Below, in pieces: positions 1,819 to 26,088 of a DNA stretch of 64,000 nucleotides. Each line of letters opens with the position of its first letter. The first letter of the stretch is position 1. This stretch comes from an uncultured Planctomycetales bacterium (lineage in GTDB: Bacteria; Omnitrophota; Gorgyraeia; Zapsychrales; Fredricksoniimonadaceae): assembly GCA_964572155.1 (NCBI GenBank), contig CAZNDZ010000002.1, positions 83,089 to 147,088 of the forward strand. The letters are read 5' to 3'. Made by a program: the position numbers and the translations under genes. Below the pieces are notes generated by a model. It had not been told where the DNA came from and made no database searches. It worked only from the letters and a program-made list of their open reading frames with translations.

Positions 1819-2040
1819 ATGAGCCAACAAACCCCCATTCTGATGAAAATGCAACCCGGCAAATACGTTTGGTGCACCTGCGGCCAATCCACCAAACAAC
1901 CCTTCTGCGATGGCAGCCACGGCCCAACCGGCATGCGTCCTATGTTTGTAGAAATTACGGAAGAAAAGACAGTTGCGTGGTGCACCTGCAAAACCAGCAA
2001 CAACAAACCATTCTGCGACGGGTCACATAATAAACGTTAA
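1819..2040 (+). CDS. CDGSH iron-sulfur domain protein (two CDGSH motifs)
   Basis: Two copies of C-x-C-x(5-7)-PFCDGSH in 73 aa. Confidence 0.85.
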   Translation: MSQQTPILMKMQPGKYVWCTCGQSTKQPFCDGSHGPTGMRPMFVEITEEKTVAWCTCKTSNNKPFCDGSHNKR

Positions 2041-5000: not shown

Positions 5001-5072
5001 AAAAGTCACTGCAACTATCATCGAAAGAAATGGGGTTTTCGTTCTCATACTAAGAGTATGGAACACGTGCAA
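2037..5072 (-). CDS. Large secreted protein of unknown function (1011 aa, N-terminal signal peptide)
   Basis: Long intact ORF with a hydrophobic signal-like N-terminus (LSMIVAVTFLATSLGITQVRA). No recognisable catalytic motif. Confidence 0.55.
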   Translation of the reverse strand: MHVFHTLSMRTKTPFLSMIVAVTFLATSLGITQVRANELVLPAPGVMVPLSDALKAAKLKGIKVHPDNPFKFDFILDRGQDNSSDETLKATTTNLIKYFLASLTTPEKDLWVNLSPYEKERIVPESFGQTTMGRDLLAQDYLLKQVTASLIYPEKEVGKKFWDRVYAEAQKKFGTSNIPVNTFNKVWIVPNKAVVYENAQNGTAYIVDASLKVMLEEDYLALDKNNTTSKDNHSIGSQVVREIVIPMLTQEVNQGANFIKMRQVYYAYILAAWYKKKIKDGILSSVYLDQNKIAGVSIDNPQQKQEIYNRYVEAFKKGVYNYVKEDIDINTNQTIPRKYFSGGVVLTDSAMSIANLETIVKEYPTFFSNTPVVATAYFVAAGIQIKGLVDKLRGKDAVNVQIKTSQTMFVQDLERLEGIGKVLKRELEMIMKKDPLIKVAATVNRAGDAPSLVLQMFRETNQVKQAVGQVELVATGLGGVKIRRLYLRDIDDVDGKVIVINPVINEDYYADETLEAYEELANLLLEQSSTFNDKFSRAFEISKPSKKVLTTILGSKKMKDILNQAEGNTNFEVAGKNIEPLTRVFAWAVRGLTRKQIKDTIQDWLKAGDPNIDTLLMSLFEKERTLFPSQQYGSNAFGKLFIKMSNVIKSTAESAGYSYLELEVSFPDSFQNYMLYHGSKWRLAEKPTVLFFATATAAKLAVLTEKKNMKSSEILKQLLWKITKDPWFQEKHRLYKMQLPLTSKKSTEATQPLTIEVEDKNVSSDAIQKLITSRWNDLEPAEKSDISAEVSKVVGRSNEAMSSVQVDLVQNSFNSLVEDPSTFIEWLSKTSKKEKNLMITNPQLRVSESIFFQEVEAIKNKDHQIFIKDVAANPYFVRLTVNNGDYLGEINLTTQEAMRVRQSLDKVKALEDVFVKRSFTDAMSFANSIYARVNSMKEAQPNKAQSNLGGIDLKSDRLNLELQNQGGAIAFKVTPEMLAQLRDAAGFEPVVLDMKPVGDVGGLKSFLGVVN

Positions 5073-9289: not shown

Positions 9290-10920
9290 TTTAGCCCTTC
9301 ATCGTAGCTAGTCTGCCACGGTTCATTTAATTCAACATTAACAATACGCTGATCCTGAATGTAAACCGCCTTAAACACAATCCGCATAAAGGTTTTAATT
9401 AAAAAACTTGTTCCTCCGAAGCCATCATCCGCTATTTCATGGTTTGGCGAAGGAGAATCAGCTTGCTCATTATCCTGAAATTTTCGTAAATGTAAAAGAA
9501 AATCCTCGGTGGCTCGGTTTAAATTAATGGCGTTTCTTTTGTCTAAAATCCTAAGCTGAACACCTTTAATATCCTGCCTTAACTTCTTCTCCTCATTACG
9601 CAAAAGCTCGGCGCGGTCTTTGTAAATCTCCAGATTAATGCTGTCCTGCGTAAAAACTTCAAACAAACCTTTTTGCTTCTCAAGGTTTTTATTAAGAGCC
9701 TTTGTCAATACTTCCAGCTCATCTAAGAACACCTGCTCCGGCTGGGAGGCATTAAGCTTAACCATGTCGCCTAATTCTTCAAGGACATGCAAGTTTTGGC
9801 ATACCACATCAATAATATCCCAGACCTGTACGCTTATCACATCCGCTGACACGCTTGGATTATGGCACGTTAAATACGAAACCCCTTTGGATGAACAGCG
9901 ATACCACGGGCGCTTGACCTTGGTGCGGTGATTGGTAATCGACATGATGCCACGAAAATTACCACCACACTCCTTGCATTTTAGCACACCGGACAAGTGG
10001 TAATTATTGTTCTTAAATTTCACCACCGCATTCTTGCGATTGCGTTTAAGCAAGACCGCGGCTTCATCGAATTGTTTCTGGCTGATGATAGGCTCATGGA
10101 CATTGGGCACTTCAACAATTTTAGAAGTATCATTGGCGATATATTTATAGCCATTACCTTGACCATCTTTTGTTTTTGCTCTTGGATCATAACGATGGCG
10201 GTTCCAAACCAACATCCCTAAATACACCTTGCTCTTTAGAATGGTGCCAATAAATTTCGTGTAGAATCGCCCGCCCTGACGGGATGATGTTCCTAGACGA
10301 TAAAAATGACCGGCAATTTGCGAGGTGCTTTGGCCGTTGATATAACGCTCAAAAATTTCTCTAACAATCTTGGCTTCCTCCTCATAAACCTCCAGCTTCT
10401 TAATGTCTTTATTGTAGCGATAGCCATATGGTGCATAACGCGCCCCCTGCCAATGGCCTTTCTTAACACCCACCAGCATCCCGGGAAAGACACGCTCAAC
10501 CAAACGATTGCGTTCAAACTCCGCGCAAGAGCCCAGCATTTGAATGGCCATCTTGCCAGCACTGGATGTTGTATCAAAAGGTTCAGTCGCTGATTTATAA
10601 CCAACCCCTAAATTATCCAATTCCTCAAGCAAACCCAGAAGGTCTTTGAGCCGACGGCTTAAACGATCTTGTTTATACACCATCACCAAATCAAACTGTT
10701 TATTGCGAGCATCGAACAACAACCTCTGCAAAGCAGGCCTGTCCATATTCCCTCCAGAAAAGCCGTCATCCATGTAAATATCCTTACCCGGCAAGGTGCA
10801 AACAATTGTCCAGCCAAGATTCTGGGCATATTGCACCAAAAACGTGCGTTGCACCTCGAGTGAAAAACCTTCGCGGGCTTGGTCTTCTGTACTGACTCTG
10901 GTATATAAAGCGACTCTCAT
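9169..10920 (-). mobile_element. Large serine recombinase (resolvase/invertase N-domain + recombinase domain + Zn-ribbon/coiled-coil); island integrase
   Basis: MRVALYTRVSTEDQ catalytic Ser motif (start chosen at the internal Met). Recombinase domain and CxxC...C zinc ribbon (CKECGGNF...C) are present. The C-terminal ~90-aa tail may be non-coding read-through into miaB. Confidence 0.85.
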
Positions 10921-10955
10921 GTTCATTTGGCGGGAGTATACCTTGCATTCCCGCA

Positions 10956-11201
10956 TTATTCAAAGCCTTCTTGAGCTTTCTTGGCTAAAAACATTCTAGT
11001 TAATATTTCAATACCATCATCAAACGACTTTCGCGCCTGAGCGATTTCCCCCTGAGACAAACCTTTAGCCTTGAGCTTTATTTCTAAAGCATCCCAGCCA
11101 CGGGGTTTTGATATTGCGTCATTATTTATAATTGAGTCACTATTCATAACAATAAGAAGGTGTGCGGAGGAAGACACAAGGAGGGATCTTCTGTTATGCA
11201 C
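10956..11201 (-). CDS. Small hypothetical protein, possible HTH/excisionase-like regulator
   Basis: Sits immediately upstream of and abutting the recombinase gene. The segment GLSQGEIAQARKSF resembles an HTH turn. Function not supported further. Confidence 0.35.
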   Translation of the reverse strand: MHNRRSLLVSSSAHLLIVMNSDSIINNDAISKPRGWDALEIKLKAKGLSQGEIAQARKSFDDGIEILTRMFLAKKAQEGFE

Positions 11202-13079: not shown

Positions 13080-13772
13080 CTAGGCTATTTGTTTGAAGCC
13101 ACCCTCGATTAATTCAATGCTGTTTTCTAAATCCCTTTTGGCACGTCTACGCGCATAATGCATGCCATGTGATGAAATATAATGTTTATAAAATTTCTTT
13201 GCCAAATCATCCAAACCCACACCTTCTACGTACTGATCATACACATTCAAATAATGCTTAAACTGCCGGGGAAGCACTCTCGGCGTTACCTTTTGCTTTG
13301 GAAATGTCTTTTCAATTTCCTTCAACCTTTTCTGCCATCGATCCACCATTAAACTGAACTCATCACAAATCTTTTGCTTGGCCAAGCTCATGTTGACCCT
13401 GATCTCAAGAAACCTGCCATTGGTAAAAACATCCCTGTCATTAAGCAAATCCGGATTATCAAAGCAATCAATGGCATTCGCCTCAACCAATAGAGCATCA
13501 ATATAAAGAGTTTTTGTTTTTCGGTCACTCTCAATAAGCTCTTCAAATGACATCGATGGCGGGATAGGGTTTAATAAACCCCATTTGGATAAAATCTTTA
13601 AGGCTTTGTCTTTTTGTGATTCAGGATGAGAATTCTTAATAAGATCAACGATGCGGAGTTTTCGTACGATAAAAATATAATCGTCCATATATTGGACATT
13701 TCGCCTGAGAAATTCCCAGCGATACTTTAAGCAATTTTTCTCACGCTTTGTCAGTAAACCAACTCGCAACAC
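13080..13772 (-). CDS. Hypothetical protein (230 aa)
   Basis: Intact ORF. The N-terminal LTKREKNCLKYRWEFL may be an HTH-like segment. No assignable domain. Confidence 0.45.
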   Translation of the reverse strand: MLRVGLLTKREKNCLKYRWEFLRRNVQYMDDYIFIVRKLRIVDLIKNSHPESQKDKALKILSKWGLLNPIPPSMSFEELIESDRKTKTLYIDALLVEANAIDCFDNPDLLNDRDVFTNGRFLEIRVNMSLAKQKICDEFSLMVDRWQKRLKEIEKTFPKQKVTPRVLPRQFKHYLNVYDQYVEGVGLDDLAKKFYKHYISSHGMHYARRRAKRDLENSIELIEGGFKQIA

Positions 13773-13825: not shown

Positions 13826-16800
13826 CTATAGAATACTCACAAATTCAGCTACAACACGAAAATCATCACCAGAAACGTTTTCGATCACAATATCTTTAAA
13901 ATCTTTATTATCCGGCGATAGAATGATCCGCTTGTGCCTCCACTGATCATCACCTAAATCTTCCTTCTCGCTGTGATAACGTTTAATGGTATAACTCTTC
14001 TGAGTTTCGGGGTCTTTAACTAATCGAGATTCCACAAGAAAAATACCAATACGTGAACCTCCGCGATCAAAACGGAACAAGCACCAGCTGCCGTCTTTAA
14101 TGGTAGGTTCCATTGATTTTCCAAATACCTGCGCGATGAACATATGCTCACCAATCTTACGCCCATGCATCGGCTTCCACCCGATAATTTCTTGCGTTAA
14201 CTGTTCTCCAAAGTCTGTCGCTACTGCCTGCAAGTCATAAACGGGAAGATACCCCTGTTCAATTGTCGCATCGGGAATCACATCCTTAAAAAACAACGGC
14301 TTATCATCCTCAACCTTTTGAAGGCGTCCATAAACACGCTTTAATAAATAATCTTTTACAACCGCACTAAAGGCTTTATCACCTGTGATCTTATTGAAAA
14401 TATCTTGATTCTGATCCATCCGCTCAACTAACTTATCCATAAACACATCATCAAATCCGTATTTGAAATTATCAATAGAATTGCTCTGGGCTTGCATGCC
14501 AAGGCGCTCATCTAAGACCATTTCCTCCTCAATTTGATCAAAGAAAAGCTTATCTGCTTCCGTAAAATCTGTTCCGAATCGATCATTAAGAAGATTAATT
14601 ATTTCAGATAATTTTGCGTATTCGTCCTTATCCTTCTTCGTGCCCGCCTCAGACAATGGCTTGATTGCCGCTCCTGAATCCTTTTCTAAAGCAATCTTGC
14701 CCTCTGCAACTTTCTGCAAACGGTAATACTGAATAGCAACCTCATCACCCAAATTGTATCTTGGCCCACGATTTGGCCCCGGTAATTTCTTTAAAAGCAA
14801 ACGGCCATAGGCATAAAACTTTTCTAAATCAACATCTTGAAACGGCATAATTTGCGCTAAGAATGCATAAAGCCTGACAAAAACTCCAAGCGTATTAATA
14901 AAATCGTCTTTGTGTTCATCCTTATCAATTGTTTCAAAACGTGTCACTGCCACATCAATTAACGCATTTAACTGGGCATGTTCCTGTTTATTGTGCTGTT
15001 CTTTATTCTTAAAGAATACGGTACAAAATGCATCCACATCTGATGGATAAATGATTTTAAATGAATCAATCTTAGTCTTTAAATCGTAGAGCTTATTGGG
15101 ATCTGTTGTCTCTGTTAATTGCGTTTGTTCATAATATGGTTGGAATGCCGCTAAAATATCCTCCCGGCTATTTACAAAATCTAACACGAAGGTATCTTCC
15201 TTACCCGGACAAGTACGATTCAAACGGCTTAATGTTTGTACAGCCTTAACACCATCAATACGTTTATCTACATACATCGTATGCAACAACGGCTCGTCAT
15301 ATCCTGTCTGATACTTCTCAGCTACTAAAAGAATTTGATACTCTGAAGAAGAAAACTTCTCCGGCAATTCTTTCTCACCAAAACCATTCATCTTGGGCTC
15401 TGTGTATTCAGGCGGTACACCATCCAATAAAACAGTTCCAGAGAAAGCCACCAAAGCCTTGATATCCCGATAACCTTTTTCTTTTAAATAACGATCAAAC
15501 TCTTGCTTATAGCGAACCACGTGCTCACGGGAAGCTGTGACAACCATGGCCTTGGCTTTACCGCCAATCAACTTCATGGTTACCTGCCTAAAGTGCTCGA
15601 TGATAACCTCTGTTTTCTGGGCTAATACATACGGATGCATTGTTGCAAATCTAGCAATAGCGGCCGCGGCTTTCTGCTTATTTAGCTGAGGATCATCTTC
15701 GATCTTTTTGTTTAACTGGTAAAAAGACTGGTAGGTGGTGTAGTTGTCTAATACGTCCAAGATAAAACCCTCTTCAATGGCTTGTCGCATAGAATACAAA
15801 TGAAATGGCACCGGCTTCCCATCCGTACCCTTTTGACCAAAAGTCTCAAGTGTCTTAGCCTTAGGTGTTGCCGTAAAAGCAAAGAAGCTTAAATTCGGCT
15901 GAGGCCCTCTGGCACGCATGACCTCACGCAAACCATCTTCAATATCATCTTCATCGCTGATCAATAAAACCCTTTTCAAATCAGCGGCAGATTCTCCCCC
16001 TTGCGAACTATGTGCTTCATCGACAATAACCGCATAATTACGCTTAGCTAACTTCCCAACTTTCTCAATAACAAAGGGAAACTTCTGTAATGTGGTGATA
16101 ATAATATTTGTGCCGTTGGTCAACGCATTGGCCAACTGCTCAGAATTCTGGTCAATCTTTTCAACCACCCCGCTTCTATGCTCAAACTGATAAATAGTCT
16201 CTTGCAATTGCTGATCAAGCACTAGCCTGTCCGTCACCACAATCACCGTATCGAATATGCGCTTATCCTCTTGATCATGGATCCCCGCCAAACGGTAAGC
16301 AAGCCATGCAATTGAATTACTCTTGCCGCTTCCAGCGCTGTGTTGAATTAAATAATTTCTTCCGGCACCATTAGCCTTGGCATCAACAGCTAATTTCCTC
16401 ACCACATCAAGCTGATGATAACGAGGAAAGATCATGGTCTCTTTACGGACAGTACGATTATCCATGCGGATTTCTTTTGTTTCTAAATGCATGAACCGAC
16501 CCAAGATATCCATCAGACTGTCTTTAATTAAAACCTCTTCCCAAAGATACGCTGTCTTATGCCCACTTGACGGAGGATTTCCTTTGCCCTTGTTATGCCC
16601 TTTATTAAACGGTAAATAATACGTTCGGTTTCCTTGAATACGGGTAGTCATATAAACCTCATCCGTATCAACAGCAAAATGAACCAAAGCACGCTTTTTA
16701 AATTGGAATAACAAATCCCTCTCATCACGGTCATATTTATACTGTCGTTTGGCATTTTCCACATTCTGCCCCGTGAATTGATTCTTAAGCTCTAATGTCA

Positions 16801-17248
16801 CCACCGGCAGACCATTAACCAAAAGGACAATATCAACTGAACGCTCATCTTTTTCACAAAAGTGAACCTGACGGGTAACATTAAGAATATTTTGGTCGTA
16901 TAATTTCTGAGTTGTAGGATTAAGCCCGCTGACAGGCTTAAAGTAGGCAAGGGAGAACTTCTTGCCGTAGTCAGTAATTCCATAACGAAGACAGTCCAGC
17001 ATACCGCGCGTTTCCAACTCCTGATTCAGCCGATAAAGAAACTTCTTCTCTACCTCCGCACCATGAATACCAGCCAAAGCATCCCAAGCATCTTTTTGTG
17101 TCGTTTTAATAAATTTGAATAGCTCCTCTTTATCAATGCACATAAGACGATCGAAATTAGCTGAATCTCCTTTTATGTAACCACCACGGTCGATCAGACT
17201 TTGCTCGATTGCTTCTTCAAATGCTTTTTCATTTGTTATTGATGACAT
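13826..17248 (-). CDS. hsdR: Type I restriction enzyme R subunit HsdR with C-terminal LexA/UmuD-like S24 peptidase domain
   Basis: Motifs: N-terminal nuclease region NGLPVVTLELKN, SF2 helicase motif I GSGKS, DEAH box VIVDEAHSSQG and motif VI QTLSRLNR. The C-terminal ~150 aa carry the S24 signature YLPVYDLQAVATDFGE...GKSMEPTIKDGSWCLF...YTIKRY (Ser/Lys dyad positions conserved). Confidence 0.85.
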   Translation of the reverse strand: MSSITNEKAFEEAIEQSLIDRGGYIKGDSANFDRLMCIDKEELFKFIKTTQKDAWDALAGIHGAEVEKKFLYRLNQELETRGMLDCLRYGITDYGKKFSLAYFKPVSGLNPTTQKLYDQNILNVTRQVHFCEKDERSVDIVLLVNGLPVVTLELKNQFTGQNVENAKRQYKYDRDERDLLFQFKKRALVHFAVDTDEVYMTTRIQGNRTYYLPFNKGHNKGKGNPPSSGHKTAYLWEEVLIKDSLMDILGRFMHLETKEIRMDNRTVRKETMIFPRYHQLDVVRKLAVDAKANGAGRNYLIQHSAGSGKSNSIAWLAYRLAGIHDQEDKRIFDTVIVVTDRLVLDQQLQETIYQFEHRSGVVEKIDQNSEQLANALTNGTNIIITTLQKFPFVIEKVGKLAKRNYAVIVDEAHSSQGGESAADLKRVLLISDEDDIEDGLREVMRARGPQPNLSFFAFTATPKAKTLETFGQKGTDGKPVPFHLYSMRQAIEEGFILDVLDNYTTYQSFYQLNKKIEDDPQLNKQKAAAAIARFATMHPYVLAQKTEVIIEHFRQVTMKLIGGKAKAMVVTASREHVVRYKQEFDRYLKEKGYRDIKALVAFSGTVLLDGVPPEYTEPKMNGFGEKELPEKFSSSEYQILLVAEKYQTGYDEPLLHTMYVDKRIDGVKAVQTLSRLNRTCPGKEDTFVLDFVNSREDILAAFQPYYEQTQLTETTDPNKLYDLKTKIDSFKIIYPSDVDAFCTVFFKNKEQHNKQEHAQLNALIDVAVTRFETIDKDEHKDDFINTLGVFVRLYAFLAQIMPFQDVDLEKFYAYGRLLLKKLPGPNRGPRYNLGDEVAIQYYRLQKVAEGKIALEKDSGAAIKPLSEAGTKKDKDEYAKLSEIINLLNDRFGTDFTEADKLFFDQIEEEMVLDERLGMQAQSNSIDNFKYGFDDVFMDKLVERMDQNQDIFNKITGDKAFSAVVKDYLLKRVYGRLQKVEDDKPLFFKDVIPDATIEQGYLPVYDLQAVATDFGEQLTQEIIGWKPMHGRKIGEHMFIAQVFGKSMEPTIKDGSWCLFRFDRGGSRIGIFLVESRLVKDPETQKSYTIKRYHSEKEDLGDDQWRHKRIILSPDNKDFKDIVIENVSGDDFRVVAEFVSIL

Positions 17249-17257
17249 ATATACCTA

Positions 17258-17989
17258 TCACTGAGATGCGTTCATAATTTCGTTTGAACTTAAATCAAAT
17301 CCTTCTTCTTGCAATCTTTTACAAAGCTTAGGAATTATCTCTCGAATATGAGTGTTATATCCATATCTAATGATGCCTTCCAAATCAGATGGCAACTCTA
17401 AGTGCCCCTTGACTATAATTGCCATGCGATTTCTTGTCAAAGAAGACAACAACATTCCTGTCTCAAGAATTACATTCTGTCGGGTTCGTGGTTCAGCTTT
17501 ATCAGCGCCGTCCTTAAGCGCATATCCTACGTCATCAGGCGTCATTAAAACAATTCCAAAATCTGATGAATAATCCTTCCCAATTCTACCTTCTAAAGCT
17601 TCAATAATAGTTTTACCTCCGCCACTACTATTCATCAAAATAAACGGTTCCAAATTTAACCGATGCAACGCAAGTTCCAACTGATCTCTTGCTTCAACAT
17701 CATGACCATGCACAATAAAAATCTGTTTCTTAGAAGAGCCGCCTTGTGACGTTCCATTCCCAGCAAACAAATCATGCATCCTCTTTTTTGCATCATCATT
17801 TCCTTGAAACTGTATCGTCTTGTTTGATGACCACCAATGAAGGATCCCTCCATCTTTGGCGCGGAATGAATACTTATCTCCTGATTGAGTCCAGGATCCT
17901 TCAATAGTCATAAAGATTGACTTTAATTGATCAATACTACCGTTATATTTATCAGCCATTAACAATCTCCTTTTCAAAACGAACATCAA
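17258..17989 (-). CDS. TIR-like domain protein (Cap12/PycTIR-type, COG4271-like) with ~80-aa N-terminal domain of unknown function
   Basis: KQIFIVHGHDVEARDQLELALHRLNLEPFIL...GKTIIEALEG...DFGIVLMTPDDVG...RTRQNVILETGML...RMAIIVKG...ELPSDLEGIIRYGY matches the conserved blocks of the CBASS/Pycsar-effector TIR-like family. It lies between hsdS and hsdR and overlaps the hsdS stop. Confidence 0.65.
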   Translation of the reverse strand: MMFVLKRRLLMADKYNGSIDQLKSIFMTIEGSWTQSGDKYSFRAKDGGILHWWSSNKTIQFQGNDDAKKRMHDLFAGNGTSQGGSSKKQIFIVHGHDVEARDQLELALHRLNLEPFILMNSSGGGKTIIEALEGRIGKDYSSDFGIVLMTPDDVGYALKDGADKAEPRTRQNVILETGMLLSSLTRNRMAIIVKGHLELPSDLEGIIRYGYNTHIREIIPKLCKRLQEEGFDLSSNEIMNASQ

Positions 17990-19301
17990 TCTTTCCCGTC
18001 ACTGCTTCTGAAATTAACGCAGTGCGGTATTCGTTCAACAGCTCGATAGACCTCTGTTCTAGAACAATCTGCGCATCGATCTGAACAGTTTTTTTATCTA
18101 AAAAAGATGCTATAGCTTCTTGTTCTTTTTTGGGTGGAATTAAACATATAGAATTGCTTAAAGCATAATTGCTCAATCCATATCTTGTAACGCCAGACGC
18201 TTCAATTCTAAACTGATAATTAATACAATCTGCAGACAAGACCCAGAACAGATATTTTCCTTGGATCAATTGTTCTTTGGGGCGCACTTGAGCCAGATGA
18301 TAGCCACATATTAAATTTGGCTCTTCAAAGGACACATACGCAGGAATAGCAATATCGCTCCATTCTTCAGAATCTTTAGTTAGCAAAACATCCCCCACCT
18401 TTAAATGAAACTTTACAATTTCATCTGCTGAAGCTGTAGCATCCATAAAATCTAAATCTGGCGTAATTAAATCGTTATAATAAACATCAACGTAATTACA
18501 AAGTCTTACAGCTATCTCGCCTTCTTCGGATTTCTTGTTAACATTGCTAAACTGAACCTGTGCATTAAATTTCAACTTCTTAATCTCCCAATGCTTCGGA
18601 ACCTTACCTAACCATTCAATACCAGAATCTTTCATCTCAGCTTTGGGATCAATCCCTTTGGTCACTGTTTGATTAATTACTGCCGCACGCTCCTCTTTAA
18701 GAAGCTTAATCATCTGCTCCTTTTTGGTAATCAGGTCGTCAATCTGTGCAGTATTATGATCAAGAAATGCGGAAATACATCTTTGTTCACTTATATCATC
18801 CGGATACCAAATCGCTATATCTGCCAAATCTGAAGAATTAATTGCCGGATAGCTCACACCAACCGATAAGGCGCATATTCGATCAATGATCTTCTCGCTA
18901 CGTAAAATATAATAAATAAATTTTGGTTCAAGCTTTGATCCAGGAGTCACCACAGCAAAACCGGTTGAGACGATAAAATCATTCACGTCCTCTTCGAAAT
19001 GAGCAATGGCTTTTAAATAAGTTCTGACTGTGGAAACAATTGAATCACCTTTTCTTACAATTCTTCTAGCTCGAGAAGGCGCGTTTAGAAAATTAACTTT
19101 CTCCGTAATGCTATAACCCTTCTCAAGATCAACATTTCCTATGTCAATATAGTTAAACTCGTAGCTTCCATCAGTTTCCTCGCCCAAAGCAAGTTGATTG
19201 ACGCGTGAAACATATTTAATCTTTTTTATCTTCCAAATTTCAGGAATATTCCCAATCCATTTAATCCCTGAATCTTTATATGCTGGATAATACTTAAACA
19301 T
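17952..19301 (-). CDS. hsdS: Type I R-M specificity subunit HsdS (two target-recognition domains)
   Basis: 449 aa with duplicated TRD architecture and conserved HsdS repeat regions (e.g. the conserved spacer helix LLKEERAAVINQTVTKGIDP). Confidence 0.8.
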   Translation of the reverse strand: MFKYYPAYKDSGIKWIGNIPEIWKIKKIKYVSRVNQLALGEETDGSYEFNYIDIGNVDLEKGYSITEKVNFLNAPSRARRIVRKGDSIVSTVRTYLKAIAHFEEDVNDFIVSTGFAVVTPGSKLEPKFIYYILRSEKIIDRICALSVGVSYPAINSSDLADIAIWYPDDISEQRCISAFLDHNTAQIDDLITKKEQMIKLLKEERAAVINQTVTKGIDPKAEMKDSGIEWLGKVPKHWEIKKLKFNAQVQFSNVNKKSEEGEIAVRLCNYVDVYYNDLITPDLDFMDATASADEIVKFHLKVGDVLLTKDSEEWSDIAIPAYVSFEEPNLICGYHLAQVRPKEQLIQGKYLFWVLSADCINYQFRIEASGVTRYGLSNYALSNSICLIPPKKEQEAIASFLDKKTVQIDAQIVLEQRSIELLNEYRTALISEAVTGKIDVRFEKEIVNG

Positions 19302-20235
19302 AAGCTAGTCCCAGATCAGATGTATCCTTCTTAAATGGCTTTTGCTGATGAATCAAAACATGCCCATTTTCTAATGGAATTTTAATCTTCCTTAGCTCAA
19401 CGCGCCAATCCTGATATTCCTTAACAATATTCTCGACCCCAGCATGTTCATTAAAAATAACCTTATCTTCAGCAGACTGAACCATCAATCGGTTAAGCAT
19501 TTCAACGCCTTGCGGTTTTATTGCTCCCACACTGTCACTTTGGCGCGGCTCTGTGTCATGTAAAGGATGAATAATTATTGCTAAACGTGGAGTTATGGGG
19601 CAATACAAATCACATTGATTAGCGTTCCAATATTGCAAACAAACTGGATTATCGCTAGTCAAAAATTGAACAGGTGTTTCATTCTTAAATACAATCCATG
19701 GCGATGTAGCTAGGAGATTTTGAACGCCAATCAAAGCATTAATCCCCAATGCCTGTGGAAATGCTTGCTTGATGAGAGCCTTGGTTCCTCCATGCTTACG
19801 AATTGTTTCTATTGCTTCACGATGCTTTGAATTAGGATCTGATAATTCTTTCTCTTCCAATTTATCATACAAATGCTGAACAATATGCGAAAGGCCACCA
19901 ACACCCAACCTCACAGCCGTTGGAGTGCAGGCTCTTAGATAAGCAAGGTACCCAGCTATTAAATGCTTTGTTGTTGCGTCATATATATTCGTAGAAATGC
20001 TATTAACACAATCAGTCCATTTAGGTTCGACGATCTTAAGAAAATCCTCAACAGCTCTTGGATTATCTGGAAAATATTCGTTTGAACTCCAGTCCACTTC
20101 ATAACAGATTGACTTTATTGGAATAGCATTTTGTCGACTTAAGTTGCTTTTTCGAAAAACATTAATAAAATCAGGGTTGCTAGTCAGTCCAAATCCCCTC
20201 AAATATGTTTGAGCGACATAATGATCTTTAGCCAT
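19294..20235 (-). CDS. DUF4238 family protein
   Basis: N-terminal HYVAQTYLRGF matches the DUF4238 signature (HYVPQFYLxxF). The gene sits between hsdM and hsdS. Confidence 0.6.
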   Translation of the reverse strand: MAKDHYVAQTYLRGFGLTSNPDFINVFRKSNLSRQNAIPIKSICYEVDWSSNEYFPDNPRAVEDFLKIVEPKWTDCVNSISTNIYDATTKHLIAGYLAYLRACTPTAVRLGVGGLSHIVQHLYDKLEEKELSDPNSKHREAIETIRKHGGTKALIKQAFPQALGINALIGVQNLLATSPWIVFKNETPVQFLTSDNPVCLQYWNANQCDLYCPITPRLAIIIHPLHDTEPRQSDSVGAIKPQGVEMLNRLMVQSAEDKVIFNEHAGVENIVKEYQDWRVELRKIKIPLENGHVLIHQQKPFKKDTSDLGLAYV

Positions 20236-20833
20236 TTAGAACCTCTGAATTCATCTTCCCGATCCAAGCATGTAACGCGTGTTTTATTTCGTCGGTAGTC
20301 ATACCTTTCATTCGAAATATTTCTTCAATTATATCCTCTGCAACAGTCAAGGTTTCAACCGCCACAGTTTTATCTAATTTCTCATAAGCCGAAATATCTG
20401 GCATGCCTTGAATTTGAATACCAGGTAAATTAATGGTCTGATGGGTGCTTTTAAAATGCATAAGCTTGTTCCTTAAATTCTTTAATTTCATAAACCGCTG
20501 ACCTACCCCCTCACTAAGATCAATCTCCTTATCAAAAAACCTCTTCGGCCATGTTTTAATTTTGCGGTCTAGACTCATATTTTCATCAAGATCTTTAATC
20601 GTTTGATCGCTACAACTTGAGCAGTGAGCCTCTCCAGCCAAAACCCTGAAATACATGTTAAAAAATGTTTCAACAATAGCTACGCTCATAAACACGCAGG
20701 GCAATACTTTTCGTTGAAGATTTGTATCGTCTCGCTCGACCTGAACTTCTTGCACCATTTCGCGCAAGCATCCAAAGTATTCCCAAATCATTTTATTCGG
20801 CGAACCAAAATGTGAATTAGCTGCATTATTCAC
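20228..20833 (-). CDS. Hypothetical protein, candidate HEPN-domain (RNxxxH motif)
   Basis: 201 aa, mostly helical by composition. KNLRNKLMHF contains an R-N-x3-H HEPN-type motif. The assignment is inferential. Confidence 0.4.
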   Translation of the reverse strand: MNNAANSHFGSPNKMIWEYFGCLREMVQEVQVERDDTNLQRKVLPCVFMSVAIVETFFNMYFRVLAGEAHCSSCSDQTIKDLDENMSLDRKIKTWPKRFFDKEIDLSEGVGQRFMKLKNLRNKLMHFKSTHQTINLPGIQIQGMPDISAYEKLDKTVAVETLTVAEDIIEEIFRMKGMTTDEIKHALHAWIGKMNSEVLNG

Positions 20834-22835
20834 CTAAAACTTCTCCCAATAGCCCTTCAGTTTCTTTTTCTAAAGCCAAAATATCTTTGCGTATCTCATC
20901 AAGACTACGTAATGGCTTATATTTATAGAATTCCTTCGTGAAATTGATTTCATACCCGATCTTGTCCTTGCTCCTATCCATCCACGCATCAGGCACATGA
21001 GGCATGACCTCACGCTTAAAATACTCGTCAATATTATCGGACAGCGGAACATTCTCCGCGTCGCGCAATTCCGCATCAGCTTCTGGCTTGCCTTCTTTAT
21101 CCAGACAAATCTCCGCTGTCTCATCCCTCTGGGAAAGAACCTCAAGGATGGATTTCATAACAGGCGCTTTGATCTTCAATCCAGCCTTATCAATGGCCGC
21201 ATCTATGATTGCTATAAATTTTTCTCGGTTATTATAGGTCTTGGCGCTATCCAATCCATTGAGCATTGCTTTAATCGCCTTCTGTAAAGCTTCGCCCTCC
21301 TCAATTTCCTTAATACCTTCCTTGCCCTTCTTCTTGGATTTGGCAAGATTAACAAATCCTGACTGCTGATCCAATAAGGCTATTCTTTCTGGGGATACCT
21401 GAAAACTCAATCGAAGCGGCCGCTCGACTGTCACACGGGTATAACCAAAATATTCATTGGGGAATATCTTGCAATGCTCTCCAGCTTTAAATTGTCCATA
21501 TATCTTTGTGATTGTCCCGATATGATCCTCGGCTATTTCATTACGTTTATTACCGAGGCTTCTGGCCATCTTCTTAAAGAAACCAACCCCATTGATAAGC
21601 TGAATCTTTCCTTTTCGATCTTTAGCTTTACGATTAGTAACAATCCAAATATAAGTTGAAATGCCTGTGTTATAAAAAAGCTGATCCGGCAAAGCAACAA
21701 TTGCCTCTAACATATCATTCTCAATAATCCACCTACGTATCTCACTCTCTCCGCTACCAGCTCCACCAGAAAACAAAGGCGAACCATTAAAAACAATCCC
21801 TAAACGAGCACCACCATTTTCCGGACGCATTTTGGAAATCATGTGTTGAAGAAACAAGAATGATCCATCGCTTATGCGTGGCAATCCAGCACCAAAACGC
21901 CCGGCGTTTCCTAACGTTTCATGCTCCTTCAGAATTTCACCCTCTATCTTCTTCCACTCAACACCAAAGGGAGGGTTGGAAAGCATGTAATCAAACTTCT
22001 CGTCCTTGAGCCCGTCTTGAGTAAAGGAATTACCAAACTTAATTTGATCTGGATTCTGTCCCTTAATAAGCATGTCGGAATTGCATATCGCATATGACTC
22101 TGGGTTAAGCTCTTGTCCAAAAACACGAAGGCTTGCATCAGGATTTAATTCACGCAAATATTCCTCTGCAATGGACAACATCCCACCCGTTCCGCAAGCC
22201 GGATCATAAAGCGTCTTCACAATTCCCTTTTTGGTTAATACTTCCTTGTCATTTAAGAAAAGAATATTAACCATCAGACGAATAACTTCACGCGGGGTAA
22301 AATGCTCCCCTGCCGTTTCATTGGAAAGGTCAGCAAACTTACGGATCAACTCCTCGAAAATGTAACCCATTTCAATATTGGGGACGACTTCAGGATGGAG
22401 ATCAACTTCAGCAAACCGTTTTATGATTAAGAAAAGGAGGTCGGATTTATCAAGCCGTTCAATATGATCTTCAAAATTGAAATGATCAAGAATATCCCTG
22501 GCATTTTTAGAAAAACCAGCAATGTAATTGCGGAGATTAGCGGCAATATCGCTTGGGTCAGCAACAAGCTTCTGGAAGTCAAACTTGCTTTTGTTGTAAA
22601 ATGTTAGTTTTGCCTTCTTTTTTAGAACTGTTTCAATTGCTTCAGGCGATAACCCTTTGGTCTGCGGTAAATATTCCAAGACAGTTAATTTTGTTGGCTC
22701 TAATACGCAATCCAAACGGCGCAACACCGTGAGTGGTAAAATTACCTTCCCATATTCAGATTGTTTATAGTCTCCACGAAGCAAATCCGCGATGCCCCAT
22801 ATAAAATTTGCACGGTCTTTAAAATTATTAGCCAC
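20826..22835 (-). CDS. hsdM: Type I R-M N6-adenine DNA methyltransferase HsdM (long form, 669 aa)
   Basis: HsdM N-terminal domain, AdoMet motif I (DPACGTGG) and catalytic motif NPPFG (LSNPPFGVEW). C-terminal extension present. Confidence 0.9.
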   Translation of the reverse strand: MANNFKDRANFIWGIADLLRGDYKQSEYGKVILPLTVLRRLDCVLEPTKLTVLEYLPQTKGLSPEAIETVLKKKAKLTFYNKSKFDFQKLVADPSDIAANLRNYIAGFSKNARDILDHFNFEDHIERLDKSDLLFLIIKRFAEVDLHPEVVPNIEMGYIFEELIRKFADLSNETAGEHFTPREVIRLMVNILFLNDKEVLTKKGIVKTLYDPACGTGGMLSIAEEYLRELNPDASLRVFGQELNPESYAICNSDMLIKGQNPDQIKFGNSFTQDGLKDEKFDYMLSNPPFGVEWKKIEGEILKEHETLGNAGRFGAGLPRISDGSFLFLQHMISKMRPENGGARLGIVFNGSPLFSGGAGSGESEIRRWIIENDMLEAIVALPDQLFYNTGISTYIWIVTNRKAKDRKGKIQLINGVGFFKKMARSLGNKRNEIAEDHIGTITKIYGQFKAGEHCKIFPNEYFGYTRVTVERPLRLSFQVSPERIALLDQQSGFVNLAKSKKKGKEGIKEIEEGEALQKAIKAMLNGLDSAKTYNNREKFIAIIDAAIDKAGLKIKAPVMKSILEVLSQRDETAEICLDKEGKPEADAELRDAENVPLSDNIDEYFKREVMPHVPDAWMDRSKDKIGYEINFTKEFYKYKPLRSLDEIRKDILALEKETEGLLGEVLGE

Positions 22836-22852
22836 TTATCACTCCCATTCTT

Positions 22853-23536
22853 TTAATCTTCACAAGGCGGATACTGCATCGGCGCTTCCCCAATGCTCTC
22901 CAATACTTTCGGCTTTAAATCCCCTTTGGTGTTGTTGCAAATCTCTAAAAGCTCCACATTAAACTGCCAGCCATCGCCGTAATCAAAAAGCATGATCAAC
23001 TTCTCACCTACGGTATCAAAGGCCTGTGAAATCTTGGTCTTTTTTACACCCTTGGCGCCTGGCCTGCCCTCTTCACCGATATCAACAAAAAGCTCAAAGG
23101 CCTTTCGGCAATTTCGATGATCCTTTAATTGGTCATAGAACCCAAAGCAATGATCAAACTCAAAATCAAATGCCTGCGTTATGACCTTGGCAAAATTATA
23201 AAGTGTTTTGGTTGGGACGATCTGGATCTTGCGAATAATCCTTTTCTCCTTCGTGCAATGTTCATCGCCGTAAAGCCAGACATTGAAAATATAAAGACCG
23301 GACTCGGTCGCCTTAGCTTTCTTCTTTGGAGCCGGAGCCAGATCATCGATAACCCGGGCCACCTTGTGACCGCAGGTACCGCAGAACCCTTGAAGAACCA
23401 CGACCCCGTTCAGTTCCGCGTGATAATCAACAATGGTCACCGACTTTCGGCACTCCCCGCACCAAACGTTACTCAAAAGCATACGCCGGATGTCCAAAGG
23501 AACAGTCTGCCATAGTTTTAATGCTTCATCTGCCAT
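22853..23536 (-). CDS. pRiA4b ORF-3-like protein with N-terminal CxxC...CxxC zinc ribbon
   Basis: LFDYGDGWQFNVELLEI matches the hallmark DxGDxWEH-type motif of the plasmid pRiA4b ORF-3 family. Zinc ribbon is CGEC...CGTC. The gene lies 17 bp upstream of hsdM on the same strand. Confidence 0.5.
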   Translation of the reverse strand: MADEALKLWQTVPLDIRRMLLSNVWCGECRKSVTIVDYHAELNGVVVLQGFCGTCGHKVARVIDDLAPAPKKKAKATESGLYIFNVWLYGDEHCTKEKRIIRKIQIVPTKTLYNFAKVITQAFDFEFDHCFGFYDQLKDHRNCRKAFELFVDIGEEGRPGAKGVKKTKISQAFDTVGEKLIMLFDYGDGWQFNVELLEICNNTKGDLKPKVLESIGEAPMQYPPCED

Positions 23537-23554
23537 CTTAATCCTTTGACCATT

Positions 23555-23570
23555 TCGCTCATGTGAGCGA
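23555..23570. promoter_or_regulatory. Perfect 16-bp palindrome TCGCTCA-TG-TGAGCGA between phosphoesterase and pRiA4b-like genes
   Basis: Read directly. The 2-nt spacer argues for a protein-binding operator rather than an RNA hairpin. Confidence 0.3.
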
Positions 23571-23596
23571 TATGATAATCAATATTTGGCCAATTC

Positions 23597-24220
23597 TTAT
23601 ACGTCAAGAACTACTGGTTTATTCACCAGCTTATAATCCTCATTCAAAACTGAACAGTTGATATACGTCGTATCCTTGGTTTTCTCAACACCATACCCGC
23701 CATGGATATGACCACAAATGACATAAGGAATCTTTAAACTATCAATTTTCTTGAGCAACGTCTTACTGCCTAAATGATCCCCGCCTGGACGGGCTGTGTC
23801 CTGATGGCCAAAGGCCGGGCCGTGGGTCAAAAGAATGTCTGTTTTCTTTTGAATCTTGCTCCAATGGTACCGATCAAGGTTCTCCTCTGATTCCATGAAT
23901 GCCCAATTCAAGAATATCGGCGTCATGGGTGAACCCCAGATGGTCATGCCATTGGGTAAAACATATGGCTCGTCCTTTAAGTACACCGCTTTCGTTAAAT
24001 AATTCTTAACCTGTTTTGGAAACTGCTCACAATAAAAATCATGGTTACCTGCTATCGCAATAATATGCTCAAATTTAAGACCCAATAACCAATCGTTAAA
24101 ATGAATAACATCCATCACATGACGAAACTCGCCGTCACCCGCGAAAATAAGCACATCACCTTCCGGAAGCTTTACATTGTGATGCTGTGTATGTGTGTCG
24201 GCAAAGGCAACTATTCTCAT
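23597..24220 (-). CDS. Calcineurin-like metallophosphoesterase
   Basis: MPE motifs present: AFADTH, GDGE, GNHD, THGP, GHIHGG. 207 aa. First gene of the co-directional block that continues into hsdM. Confidence 0.8.
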   Translation of the reverse strand: MRIVAFADTHTQHHNVKLPEGDVLIFAGDGEFRHVMDVIHFNDWLLGLKFEHIIAIAGNHDFYCEQFPKQVKNYLTKAVYLKDEPYVLPNGMTIWGSPMTPIFLNWAFMESEENLDRYHWSKIQKKTDILLTHGPAFGHQDTARPGGDHLGSKTLLKKIDSLKIPYVICGHIHGGYGVEKTKDTTYINCSVLNEDYKLVNKPVVLDV

Positions 24221-24342
24221 CTGTGTCCCAATGATCTGGCCAACACACTGTTGGCAAATTACTTACGAGGCACCTCATATAAAATAAAAACCTTAACTGC
24301 TAAATTGCCATATAGTTACATTAAAATCATATAATCATTCTT

Positions 24343-24370
24343 GTCACAAAAAATACATAGTTTTTGTGAC
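24343..24370. promoter_or_regulatory. 10/11-bp inverted repeat GTCACAAAAA(A)-N7-TTTTTGTGAC upstream of the phosphoesterase gene
   Basis: Read directly. It lies in the 236-bp gap between the hipT stop and the phosphoesterase start. Candidate operator for the R-M super-operon, or a hipBST terminator. Confidence 0.3.
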
Positions 24371-24456
24371 AGCGCTTAGTTCCCATCACTCCATAATTAT
24401 GTCTTTTAATGGCAACTAGGTTACTCACCAAATAACCTACGACGTCTTTTTATACA

Positions 24457-25332
24457 TCAAGCCAATTCAAGTCGCTGGAACCGTTCGATTAAAAGTTTAT
24501 CAAAATCTTGAGCAAGACCTTTAGGAAGCAAAGACTCCGCAAGTTTTGAACGAAGCATTTCTTTCTGCCCAATGAACTTCGCGAATCGAATCTTTTCTGG
24601 AATGCCTAAATACTCAGCGAGAAGGTCCATGTCCTTCCTTTTGAGCCGACTCTTTTTCCCCTTAATAGTCAATGCGGATTCGTCTGCCTCTTCTGGAATC
24701 ACAATCCTTGAGCAAACCAAATCGTAAGCAGGCGCAAGGCGTACCAATCCTTCTTCATTATAAATAACTGAATAATTCTTCATATGCGCATCACCATTAC
24801 CAATCAAGAAATTAAAAATAACGCGTTCAAAGAAAAGCTGGACGTCAAGCCCGGGAACCTCGGATGCTTCCTTTAACTTTCGGCCAATCTCCTCGACAGA
24901 GCCGTTATATTTATCTTTTTTCTCAAGGATTTGGGCAAAGTCTTCTTGATGAATCTTGCGACGCCCCTCGCGGTCAAAACGCTTGACCACATAAGCTAAA
25001 CTTTTATCTTTCAAATGCACCAGACAATGCGGTGGAACATCGATACCTAAATCTTGGGCAAACGTCATGCAAAGATCTTCATTTTCAGGCAAGTTCGCAA
25101 ATGCCTGCACCTGTGGTTTTAAAATATATTGTCCACCTTCACCGGTGACTTCTAAACGAGGCTCATTATCTTTATCAGCAAGTCGCACAGAAAGTTTTGG
25201 CTGAACGCCTGAAATAGACATTTTACCAACCATCTCTTGTGCTTTAAGAGAAACGCCAGCCAAGGTCAGATCAATAAAAGGCTCTTTATCAATGCCAAAA
25301 ACTTTACGCCATGACGCTTGTTGGTTTTTCAT
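24457..25332 (-). CDS. hipT: HipT-like Ser/Thr kinase toxin (HipA kinase core without N-subdomain)
   Basis: Gly-rich loop MSISGVQPKLSV carries the S-I-S autophosphorylation motif. Catalytic region GNGDAHMKNYSVIY is present. 291 aa. Confidence 0.8.
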   Translation of the reverse strand: MKNQQASWRKVFGIDKEPFIDLTLAGVSLKAQEMVGKMSISGVQPKLSVRLADKDNEPRLEVTGEGGQYILKPQVQAFANLPENEDLCMTFAQDLGIDVPPHCLVHLKDKSLAYVVKRFDREGRRKIHQEDFAQILEKKDKYNGSVEEIGRKLKEASEVPGLDVQLFFERVIFNFLIGNGDAHMKNYSVIYNEEGLVRLAPAYDLVCSRIVIPEEADESALTIKGKKSRLKRKDMDLLAEYLGIPEKIRFAKFIGQKEMLRSKLAESLLPKGLAQDFDKLLIERFQRLELA

Positions 25333-25673
25333 GTTGCACCACTTTCCCTCACCGTAACCGCACCAATGGTGTTTTCACCGGTCACGAGCAAAATTCCAAA
25401 ATCATCCCTACTGTCAATCTTTCTTGTTGCACAAACAATATCCCGATACCAGCCTTCAGAATTTAGGCCCGCAAAGAATGGAAAAAGTACCGCTGATTCA
25501 AAAGGCTCTGATTGTAATGGCAAGGAAAGTGATATAGATTTGCCCGTCTTTAAGAAATCAGGATCATAAGTAAATTTAAAACCCGCATCCATTTCTTCCA
25601 GAACACCAGCCAAACGCTCATGATAGAAAACATCTGCTTTGCGTTTATGATCTGCCATTACGTACCACCTCAA
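25329..25673 (-). CDS. hipS: HipS-like protein (HipA N-terminal subdomain encoded as separate gene)
   Basis: 114 aa matching the HipA N-terminal domain. Overlaps the hipT start by 4 nt and the hipB stop by 29 nt. Confidence 0.7.
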   Translation of the reverse strand: MRWYVMADHKRKADVFYHERLAGVLEEMDAGFKFTYDPDFLKTGKSISLSLPLQSEPFESAVLFPFFAGLNSEGWYRDIVCATRKIDSRDDFGILLVTGENTIGAVTVRESGAT

Positions 25674-25848
25674 GATGATGACCTAAAAATTCAAGGACCT
25701 GATTAAGTTTATCTAAGCGCACGGTAGTTTTGCCCTGCTCCAGCTCTCTGACAAAACGAAGACCAACGCCAGCACGCTTGGCAAATTCGATCTGATCGAT
25801 CCCTGCTTTTTTACGAAGCTCCTGTATTTGTTTGCCAATCATATTCAT
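25645..25848 (-). CDS. hipB: HipB-like XRE-family HTH regulator
   Basis: 67 aa with HTH motif IDQIEFAKRAGVGLRFVRELEQG. First gene of the hipB-hipS-hipT order. Confidence 0.7.
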   Translation of the reverse strand: MNMIGKQIQELRKKAGIDQIEFAKRAGVGLRFVRELEQGKTTVRLDKLNQVLEFLGHHLEVVRNGRS

Positions 25849-25953: not shown

Positions 25954-26088
25954 TATACTTATTTTGATGCTTAAGCTCCAGCGACCGCCCCAACAACCTC
26001 TTCCATCATGCGTCTATACCGTGGCCAATGGCCAGCCGTAGGTTTCTAAAAATATTTTTTTCATATTTCTAATATATCCAACGATTTC

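Follow-up and report, generated by a model that had tools for sequence, protein, structure and literature searches.

A Type I restriction-modification operon with exchangeable candidate defence cassettes and a LexA-like S24 peptidase module on HsdR

Genes embedded in Type I restriction-modification (R-M), BREX, DISARM and Hma loci have been described under the term 'guilt-by-embedding' (Payne et al. 2024, bioRxiv 10.1101/2024.01.29.577857). The same study added 145 'phage defence candidates' to PADLOC and is the source of the models PDC-S10 and PDC-S35. It cited PrrC as a gene found almost only within Type I loci, and validated seven embedded systems. In addition, Rst_DUF4238, a single-gene system located in a P2 hotspot, confers protection against T7 on E. 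coli (Rousset et al., bioRxiv 10.1101/2021.01.21.427644), and DUF4238 is also known as a domain of an E. coli TIR system (PMC11350192). The present study concerns a Type I locus found in a 64,000-nucleotide (nt) stretch of contig CAZNDZ010000002.1 from an uncultured Omnitrophota bacterium (assembly GCA_964572155.1); the whole stretch is referred to here as the window. Eight consecutive minus-strand open reading frames (ORFs) are found at positions 13826-24220. We interpret the locus as a Type I R-M operon located on a serine-recombinase island, carrying exchangeable defence cassettes and, on its HsdR, a putative S24 peptidase switch, a reading to which we assign a probability of roughly three in four.

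The coordinates and domain assignments given in a preliminary description of this stretch were confirmed by ORF listing and profile searches. In gene order, the eight genes encode a metallophosphoesterase, a PRiA4_ORF3-domain protein, HsdM, a HEPN-like protein (orf201), a DUF4238 protein, HsdS, a TIR-like protein and HsdR. Both Type I slots are filled in the window, as had been claimed: the hsdM/hsdS slot by orf201 and the DUF4238 gene, and the hsdS/hsdR slot by the TIR-like gene. The protease-type extension proposed for HsdR was borne out by a fold search and by the Peptidase_S24 matches of homologues, the match of the protein itself being marginally sub-threshold.

The three hsd genes possess complete catalytic motifs and constitute an intact-looking Type I R-M system of a distinct clade, with predicted activity. 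The methyltransferase gene hsdM (20826-22835) starts with GTG and encodes 669 amino acids (aa) that match HsdM_N (7e-28) and N6_Mtase (8e-61), as well as PADLOC MTase_I over the full length (2e-292), with an NPPF motif at aa 287. The specificity subunit HsdS (17952-19301; 449 aa) comprises two target-recognition domains, with Methylase_S matching in two stretches and PADLOC Specificity_I over the full length (5e-113). HsdR (13826-17248; 1140 aa) combines a PD-(D/E)xK nuclease, a superfamily 2 (SF2) motor, a helical C-domain and the S24 module; it matches HSDR_N, SWI2_SNF2, ResIII, a T1R_D3-like domain, TIGR00348 (4e-62) and Peptidase_S24, and carries the catalytic motifs ELK at 153, GSGKS at 306 and DEAH at 410. 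It is only distantly related to the HsdR of EcoR124I (1e-14). The exact HsdR was found only in assemblies of the same organism, its clade is large, and the closest relatives are metagenome-assembled genomes (MAGs) of Omnitrophota.

When the TIR-like protein is started at Met11, the first two junctions in gene order are gaps of 60 and 17 nt, the next four are overlaps of 8 nt each, and the last is a gap of 9 nt. The 8-nt overlaps all have the identical format ATG-n-n-stop, the stop codon being that of the upstream gene, and the sequence AATGGCT(A/G)A is common to two of the junctions in the window. The same format was observed at the equivalent junctions of six other loci (L019, L084, L091, L094, L097 and L099), and an 8-nt overlap is also present in L100, between the TIR gene and a short unannotated ORF. 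An overlap format shared across unrelated loci points to translational coupling, and possibly also to the exchange of cassettes by recombination at gene ends. A single transcript for the operon can reasonably be inferred from the gene overlaps. Co-directionality alone carries little weight, because almost all ORFs of at least 100 aa between 0.5 and 42.8 kb are on the minus strand. An Rfam search of 9-28 kb returned no family, and a search for repeats at the island ends or flanking the cassettes returned only short matches at chance level.

The combination of embedded genes had been regarded as unusual in the preliminary description. This view could not be upheld, as in the HsdR clade the slots are nearly always filled, sub-architectures recur and the embedding of genes is published. 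Of the 12 clade loci in which the hsdM/hsdS slot is visible, 11 have it filled; for the hsdS/hsdR slot, the corresponding count is 14 of 15. Depending on the locus, the former contains a KAP NTPase, Fic, RhuM, FRG, DUF4238 or a member of the orf201 family, and the latter contains TIR, DUF3644, DUF3800 with a small ORF, an ImmA-like M78 protein with DUF4411, SLFN_AlbA_2/HATPase_c_4 or unannotated ORFs. KAP NTPase, Fic, SLFN_AlbA_2, M78 with DUF4411, TIR, HEPN-like and DUF4238 proteins all belong to families associated with defence or toxins.

Parts of the window layout recur in related loci. The order hsdM-orf201-DUF4238-hsdS is found in L094 (GCA_001458795.1), where all three 8-nt overlaps are also present, and, on the basis of tblastn matches alone, in L105, where the genes abut closely. 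The set of an orf201-family gene, TIR and HsdR::S24 recurs in L091 and L104. The full eight-gene set was seen only in the window and in none of the related loci whose neighbourhoods were read. These patterns fit a one-by-one exchange of cassettes among the loci of the clade, whose operon appears to act as a scaffold for exchangeable defence cassettes.

Among the accessory genes, the profile searches that the preliminary description had proposed matched the phosphoesterase, PRiA4, DUF4238 and TIR proteins, but left orf201 (20228-20833; 201 aa) without any match in Pfam, NCBIfam or PADLOC. This gene overlaps hsdM by 8 nt. Its product carries the Rx4H motif RNKLMH (aa 121-126; nt 20456-20473); in an alignment of 15 sequences, R121 and H126 do not vary, and the conservation of N122 reaches at least 90%. 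Three of these 15 members show sub-threshold matches to HEPN_Apea. The AlphaFold model is of high confidence, with a predicted local distance difference test score (pLDDT) of 88, and the motif, together with a putative HEPN fold in the predicted structure, indicates that orf201 is probably HEPN-like. The family is small, with 17 clusters among 5.8 billion proteins. In a small sample of contexts, all members but one are found in the clade, directly after hsdM or after one intervening cassette; the exception is a homologue with 44% identity that adjoins a trypsin-like gene outside any R-M locus. The small ORF ahead of DUF4238 in L084 (orf157) was considered as a homologue and shows no similarity to orf201. 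An obligate pairing of orf201 with DUF4238 was likewise rejected, given that orf201 is present without DUF4238 in L090 and in L091/L104, and DUF4238 without orf201 in L019 and L084.

The TIR-like protein (ORF 17258-17989) most likely starts at Met11, at position 17959, which is the start used by public gene calls and the one that creates the fourth 8-nt overlap. The resulting protein of 233 aa (17258-17959) matches PF10137, the CAP12/Pycsar TIR family, with 3e-30 (105 bits, against a cut-off of 24.7), and PDC-S35 over its full length with 2e-86 (profile positions 3-245 of 245). It consists of a conserved N-terminal domain of about 80 aa followed by the TIR domain, in which the putative catalytic residue Glu166 of NVILE (nt 17462-17464) aligns with the Glu of FEFG in the Cap12 structure 9lmq. 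The tightly conserved family of about 240 aa comprises at least 2,740 full-length homologous clusters. The gene directly follows hsdS, with the 8-nt overlap, in L091, L097, L099 and L104; L097 and L099 are Type I loci whose HsdR is devoid of S24. In the decayed locus L100, the short ORF that the TIR gene overlaps is presumed to be what remains of hsdS. The family is thus placed directly after hsdS or its presumed remnant in five of five distinct contexts, a small sample that spans two HsdR clades. No cyclase (CD-NTase or Pycsar) was detected among the neighbouring genes, nor a cyclic-nucleotide sensor domain, and the scores obtained with the NCBIfam Cap12 models, 31-33 bits, fall below their cut-off of 450. 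A role as CBASS or Pycsar effector was ruled out, because there is no cyclase nearby. Because the position of orf201 and that of the TIR family are linked to hsdM or hsdS, both may depend on the R-M complex, and a functional coupling to this complex is plausible from their strict placement.

The DUF4238 protein (19294-20235; 313 aa) is encoded by a gene that overlaps orf201 and hsdS by 8 nt each. It matches PF14022 over the full length (positions 1-279 of 281) with 3e-27 and 96 bits, the cut-off being 27. A DUF4238 gene is also located directly upstream of hsdS in L019, L084, L094 and L105. The possibility that DUF4238 and TIR represent a split form of the E. coli TIR system with a DUF4238 domain (PMC11350192) found no support, as the two genes do not co-vary in the clade.

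The two genes ahead of hsdM do not belong to the hsd unit. The calcineurin-like metallophosphoesterase (23597-24220; 207 aa) matches Pfam Metallophos (6e-12) and PDC-S10 over its full length (6e-69; profile positions 10-215 of 223), and carries the metal-ligand motifs DxH(8), GD(28), GNHD(58), H(133) and GHIHG(170). The PRiA4_ORF3-domain protein (22853-23536; 227 aa) matches PF07929 over aa 97-220 (3e-14) and exhibits at its N-terminus CGEC (26-29) and CGTC (52-55), a Zn-ribbon-like CxxC...CxxC element. A literature search for PRiA4_ORF3 yielded no functional information. In L095 (GCA_900218045.1), the same phosphoesterase, 86% identical at the nucleotide level, resides in an island without hsd genes, and 174 nt of a PRiA4 remnant lie behind it. 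The earlier view of this pair as a leader of the hsd operon is ruled out by this hsd-free island, and the phosphoesterase and PRiA4 therefore form their own cassette in a variable defence hotspot.

This hotspot is the MiaB-NadA-hydrolase site, which appears variable because the related genome L095 holds a different defence island, with Fic, AbiEii and DUF4379, at the same locus. The edge of the operon-bearing island is marked by a large serine recombinase gene (9169-10956, minus strand; Resolvase, Recombinase and Zn_ribbon_recom), whose end lies 4 bp within the MiaB/RimO-like gene that it abuts (about 9172-9190); homology to the housekeeping genes of L095 picks up again at about 9190.

The LexA-like S24 serine-peptidase module occupies aa 983-1140 of HsdR (nt 13829-14302), at its C-terminus, and Pfam Peptidase_S24 matches the last approximately 110 residues. 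Relatives with the same module score 24.8-42.8 bits against PF00717, and 64 of 66 representatives match it at E<=1e-4. In the fold search, the module was found to have the beta fold of the LexA C-terminal domain. Ser1045 is located in GKSME (nt 14114-14116), Lys1089 in TIKRY (nt 13982-13984) and the cleavage-site-region motif AVATDF at aa 1008-1013 (nt 14210-14227). The alignment of the module shows GKSMEP, TIKRY and, upstream of these, an invariant or near-invariant A-x-A-T-x-F strand. In the 283 aligned modules, two of which have no residue at the catalytic columns, the catalytic Ser is present in 280/281 and the Lys in 281/281. The predicted scissile dipeptide is Ala-Gly, the classical LexA/CI site, in 111/283 modules and Cys-Gly, the classical UmuD site, in 33/283. 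Ala-Thr, found in the lineage of the window, accounts for a further 111/283 and Ala-Ser for 17/283. As the Ser and Lys are invariant in the Ala-Thr lineage, catalysis would still be under selection there. The module is borne by about 55 clusters of HsdRs that are closely related to that of the window, at 64-82% identity. It is nevertheless optional for the clade, because sister HsdRs with 75-80% identity end approximately 140 residues earlier, without it; one such sister is encoded in a normal locus that contains no separate S24 gene.

The module is not restricted to this type of enzyme. An exhaustive profile search yielded 2,059 cluster representatives (clusters at 50% identity) at E<=1e-3 and 1,341 at E<=1e-10, and, with few exceptions, the matches in the 150 representatives listed extend to the C-terminus or close to it. 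The partners in 66 longer representatives include ResIII, SLFN-g3 helicase, Type_ISP_C, Eco57I, MmeI, AlwI, LlaJI, HNH and GIY-YIG, and the PADLOC classes of the carriers include REase_III, REase_MTase_IIG, DrmMI-like and Nhi/AbiO-like. The classes of restriction or defence enzymes that end in the module number at least seven. A genome scan with one genome per species revealed at least 524 module-encoding stretches, and the neighbourhoods of 80 loci were fetched; most of these have an N-terminal part other than that of the HsdR of the window's clade. Carrier classes, set by similarity to representatives with identities confirmed by Pfam and PADLOC, comprised SLFN-g3/Nhi-AbiO-like helicases (21/80 loci), HindI-like HsdRs, which represent a different Type I family (20/80), HsdRs of the window's clade (12/80), Type III Res-like enzymes (5/80), Type ISP/IIG enzymes (5/80) and other carriers (9/80); the remaining 8/80 loci were truncated.

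The relationships among the modules do not follow those of their carriers. In MAGs of Omnitrophota and Planctomycetes, modules on HindI-like HsdRs and on a Type III-like enzyme share 70-78% identity with the module of the window; those on orthologous HsdRs of other phyla share only 46-49% with it. In 29 of 64 modules, the nearest relative is located on a different enzyme class. From these comparisons, the module is a portable unit that has moved between enzyme classes and is attached to the polypeptide bearing the restriction activity. It is rare on viral contigs, where the only match was L106 (IMG/VR UViG_3300035537_000177), a Type III Res-like enzyme adjoining a serine recombinase.

Taken together, the cassettes would be co-transcribed and translationally coupled with hsdM and hsdS, and would supply second-line effectors of the abortive-infection type, namely an RNase and an NADase. 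A physical or functional dependence on the R-M complex is possible for the orf201 and 240-aa TIR families. The S24 module would cut HsdR after Ala1010, just upstream of the module, releasing about 130 aa. This cleavage would switch the restriction activity or the stability of HsdR on a cellular cue, most plausibly RecA bound to single-stranded DNA (RecA-ssDNA) as for LexA. The direction that we favour is down-regulation, which would amount to a built-in restriction alleviation when the host DNA is at risk. After LexA cleavage, the new C-terminal ...VAA is a ClpX signal, and cleavage in the window would leave ...AVA or ...AAA, which is one reason for favouring down-regulation. Others are that proteolytic removal of HsdR is a known route of alleviation in EcoKI-type systems (PMC4231737, PMC11109961), and that cleavage in the LexA family is classically triggered by RecA-ssDNA (PMC3834820, PMC13148647). 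Extended to all its carriers, the module may be a portable self-cleaving 'fuse' that ties the activity or stability of Type I HsdRs (two families), Type ISP, IIG and III enzymes and Nhi-like proteins to RecA-ssDNA or another damage signal. It would co-evolve with the host rather than the carrier, and would allow alleviation without ClpXP recognition of stalled complexes. We propose this general role only tentatively.

Several observations weigh against parts of this reading. A scan of 12.8-26.9 kb for sigma-70-like promoter consensus gave 40 matches for 38.9 expected, and a terminator scan of the same region gave 11 for 10.1 expected, both of which correspond to chance. The best sigma-70-like match of the region (17412-17440, minus strand; TTGACA-17-TATAGT, 11/12) is situated within the TIR gene, about 165 nt upstream of hsdR. 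It could be a separate hsdR promoter, contrary to one transcript for the whole operon, although this lead stems from a scan at chance level. A promoter of its own for hsdR is a trait of classical Type I systems. PDC-S10 and PDC-S35 are models of predicted defence genes, that is, of candidates, and a PADLOC search of the DUF4238 protein gave no match. With regard to the peptidase, the window module scores 22.9 bits against PF00717, just under the gathering score of 23.3, and its predicted scissile bond is Ala1010-Thr1011 instead of Ala-Gly or Cys-Gly. In LexA, substitutions of the scissile-site Gly block cleavage. Finally, a cut just upstream of a C-terminal module would remove the module alone, so that an effect on HsdR needs a further step; an exposed degron or a loss of dimerisation might provide it, on purely inferential grounds.

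The absence of the canonical dipeptide, with Ala-Thr or Ala-Ser in 128/283 modules including that of the window and its closest relatives, raises the question of whether the S24 domain of this lineage cleaves itself at all. Its role might instead lie in dimerisation or docking, or in the cleavage of another protein in trans. The C-terminal domains of LexA and CI are dimerisation domains, and the cleavage loop is modelled with low confidence (pLDDT <50 at module residues 29-33). We nevertheless consider this explanation unlikely: the invariant Ser and Lys of the Ala-Thr lineage indicate that catalysis is under selection, and the A-x-A-T-x-F strand is invariant or nearly so, as expected of a substrate strand. 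The strict conservation of the Ser/Lys dyad would also suit a zymogen-type activation, in which S24 auto-inhibits the nuclease or motor until its removal, on RecA-ssDNA or a phage cue, licenses cutting. The module also occurs on enzymes without a detected methyltransferase domain or partner, namely Nhi/AbiO-like SLFN-g3 helicases (the 21/80 loci above) and a TnsA-like nuclease, and activation triggered by damage would suit these carriers. In the clade of the window, however, the module-free sister HsdRs occur in otherwise normal loci and therefore need no activation step, and methylation-guided enzymes that were activated when the host DNA is damaged would carry a greater risk of self-restriction. 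An activating role is thus rather improbable, and a self-cleaving module that down-regulates HsdR is preferred.

The embedded genes allow two further readings. The preliminary description had suggested a guard system, in which the R-M complex keeps the HEPN-like, DUF4238 and TIR proteins latent and phage inhibition of restriction leads to their firing, as in EcoprrI-PrrC. The nuclease domain of PrrC is a HEPN domain, orf201 belongs to a tiny family found after hsdM of the clade in all but one context, and the TIR gene occupies the prrC position between hsdS and hsdR, its family keeping this place after hsdS, or its presumed remnant, in each of the five contexts. PrrC has also been called an RM guardian in a 2025 RM review. 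On the other hand, no homologue of PrrC/RloC (ABC-ATPase with a HEPN anticodon nuclease) was found among the eight proteins in PADLOC, Pfam and NCBIfam, and orf201 has no ABC-ATPase regulatory domain. DUF4238, TIR and orf201 do not co-vary and are swapped individually, the divergent orf201 homologue beside the trypsin-like gene lies outside any R-M locus, and the phosphoesterase-PRiA4 pair is clearly independent of hsd. The synteny that would back a PrrC-like gating is circumstantial and concerns orf201 and the TIR protein only, and embedding may give expression or co-transfer only; latency under the control of the R-M complex is therefore doubtful. Conversely, the inserted genes could be selfish or mobilome passengers, or have no defence function, and simply use a permissive, well-expressed site. 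The locus is on a mobile island with recombinases, and neither PRiA4_ORF3, for which the literature offered nothing functional, nor the phosphoesterase has a demonstrated defence role. This is very unlikely, since the cassette repertoire of the clade consists mostly of families associated with defence or toxins, and Payne et al., with their seven validated systems, argued that the majority of embedded genes belong neither to the mobilome nor to the housekeeping set. An operon with exchangeable defence cassettes thus remains the preferred reading.

Some neighbouring features deserve mention. Directly upstream of the operon, a HipBST-like toxin-antitoxin trio is found on the minus strand (24457-25848) and is given here as context only. 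It comprises a helix-turn-helix (HTH) gene (25645-25848; HTH_3, 1e-9), a HipS-like gene (25329-25673; Couple_hipA, 1.5e-24) and a HipT-like kinase gene (24457-25332; HipA_C, 8e-50, with a weak match to PADLOC PDC-M03A). The 236-nt intergenic region between the HipT and phosphoesterase genes contains a perfect 11-bp inverted repeat, TGTCACAAAAA-N8-TTTTTGTGACA (24342-24371), which precedes the start of the phosphoesterase gene by 121-150 nt. The repeat occurs only once in the window, with 0 matches expected from 100 shuffles, and could serve the operon as an operator or the hipBST genes upstream as a terminator hairpin. Between the phosphoesterase and PRiA4 genes, the 60-nt spacer (23537-23596) contains a 7-bp hairpin, TCGCTCA-CA-TGAGCGA, with no T-run behind it. 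Upstream of the HTH gene, a non-coding stretch of 75 nt (25978-26052) is 80% identical to an intergenic segment of L095 (8069-8143) at the edge of an unrelated island, and could represent an island-boundary or regulatory element. Downstream of hsdR, at a distance of 53 nt, an ORF of 230 aa (13080-13772, minus strand) shows a sub-threshold match to a 'Proteobacterial transcriptional regulator-like domain', and is followed by a SpoVG-like ORF and other small ORFs, which are members of the island. An ORF of 1011 aa (2037-5072, minus strand) is devoid of any Pfam or PADLOC match.

Neighbours of hsdR::S24 in the related loci were also recorded. The genes directly after it encode SEC-C-motif proteins in L084 and L087 and PRiA4_ORF3 proteins in L090 and L017, and a recurring tie of hsdR::S24 with Zn-binding or PRiA4 proteins is possible. 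In L094, a DarT-DarG (Macro) toxin-antitoxin pair is located immediately downstream (17256-18965). In L088, a second Type I system (17341-23516) adjoins the HsdR::S24 system; ahead of its hsdM are AbiEi_2, NTP_transf_8, a Metallophos gene and a 143-aa ORF, which echo the phosphoesterase and small-protein pair of the window.

The embedding pattern and two of the cassettes, matching PDC-S10 and PDC-S35, are already catalogued, and the window conforms to a known pattern, with its cassettes well stacked. The interest of the locus comes from the S24 module and not from the stacking of cassettes. The operon remains a clear case of Type I loci serving as docking sites for other defence genes, and it nominates the HEPN-like orf201 family and the 240-aa TIR family as candidate effectors dependent on the R-M complex. 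How restriction enzymes that are not of the EcoKI type spare the host after DNA damage or upon entry into a new host is poorly understood. A protease module that ends approximately 2,000 clusters (50% identity) of otherwise unrelated restriction enzymes, with an intact dyad and mostly a canonical LexA/UmuD dipeptide, provides a testable hypothesis for the post-translational control of restriction. In open-access papers and bioRxiv, we found no description of an S24 or LexA-like domain on restriction enzymes, and the 2025 R-M review (270,000 characters) does not contain the words peptidase, LexA, autoproteolysis or self-cleavage.

Compared with the embedded genes of Payne et al., the extras of the window are similarly nested between hsdM, hsdS and hsdR, and two of its proteins match PDC-S10 and PDC-S35. 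They differ in that orf201 has no PADLOC model and in that several cassettes are stacked with uniform 8-nt overlaps; S24, DUF4238, PDC-S10 and PDC-S35 do not occur in the text and the searched supplements of the preprint. The Type IC R-M system EcoprrI with PrrC resembles the window in having an effector gene between hsdS and hsdR and a HEPN-type nuclease (a putative one in our case) in a Type I locus, as well as in the notion that restriction is guarded by a second line of defence. In contrast, orf201 is a putatively HEPN-only protein of 201 aa encoded between hsdM and hsdS, the gene between hsdS and hsdR encodes a TIR protein, and the HsdR of the window is only distantly related to Type IC HsdR. 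The TIR protein shares its domain family (PF10137) and an aligned catalytic Glu with Cap12/PycTIR, but has an N-domain of about 80 aa, no detected cyclase or sensor domain, and a gene located after hsdS. The DUF4238 protein is, like Rst_DUF4238, a full-length member of the Pfam family, the relation being at family level only, and its gene is located upstream of hsdS and not in a prophage hotspot.

As for the S24 module, it differs from LexA, UmuD and lambda CI (MEROPS S24) in being located on the C-terminus of restriction and defence enzymes rather than on a DNA-binding or mutagenesis domain, and in having Ala-Thr at the site in the window's lineage. With the ClpXP-dependent restriction alleviation of EcoKI-type systems (PMC4231737, PMC11109961), it would share a proteolytic control of HsdR that avoids self-restriction. 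In those systems an external protease acts on stalled translocating complexes, whereas in the window the predicted protease domain is part of HsdR itself.

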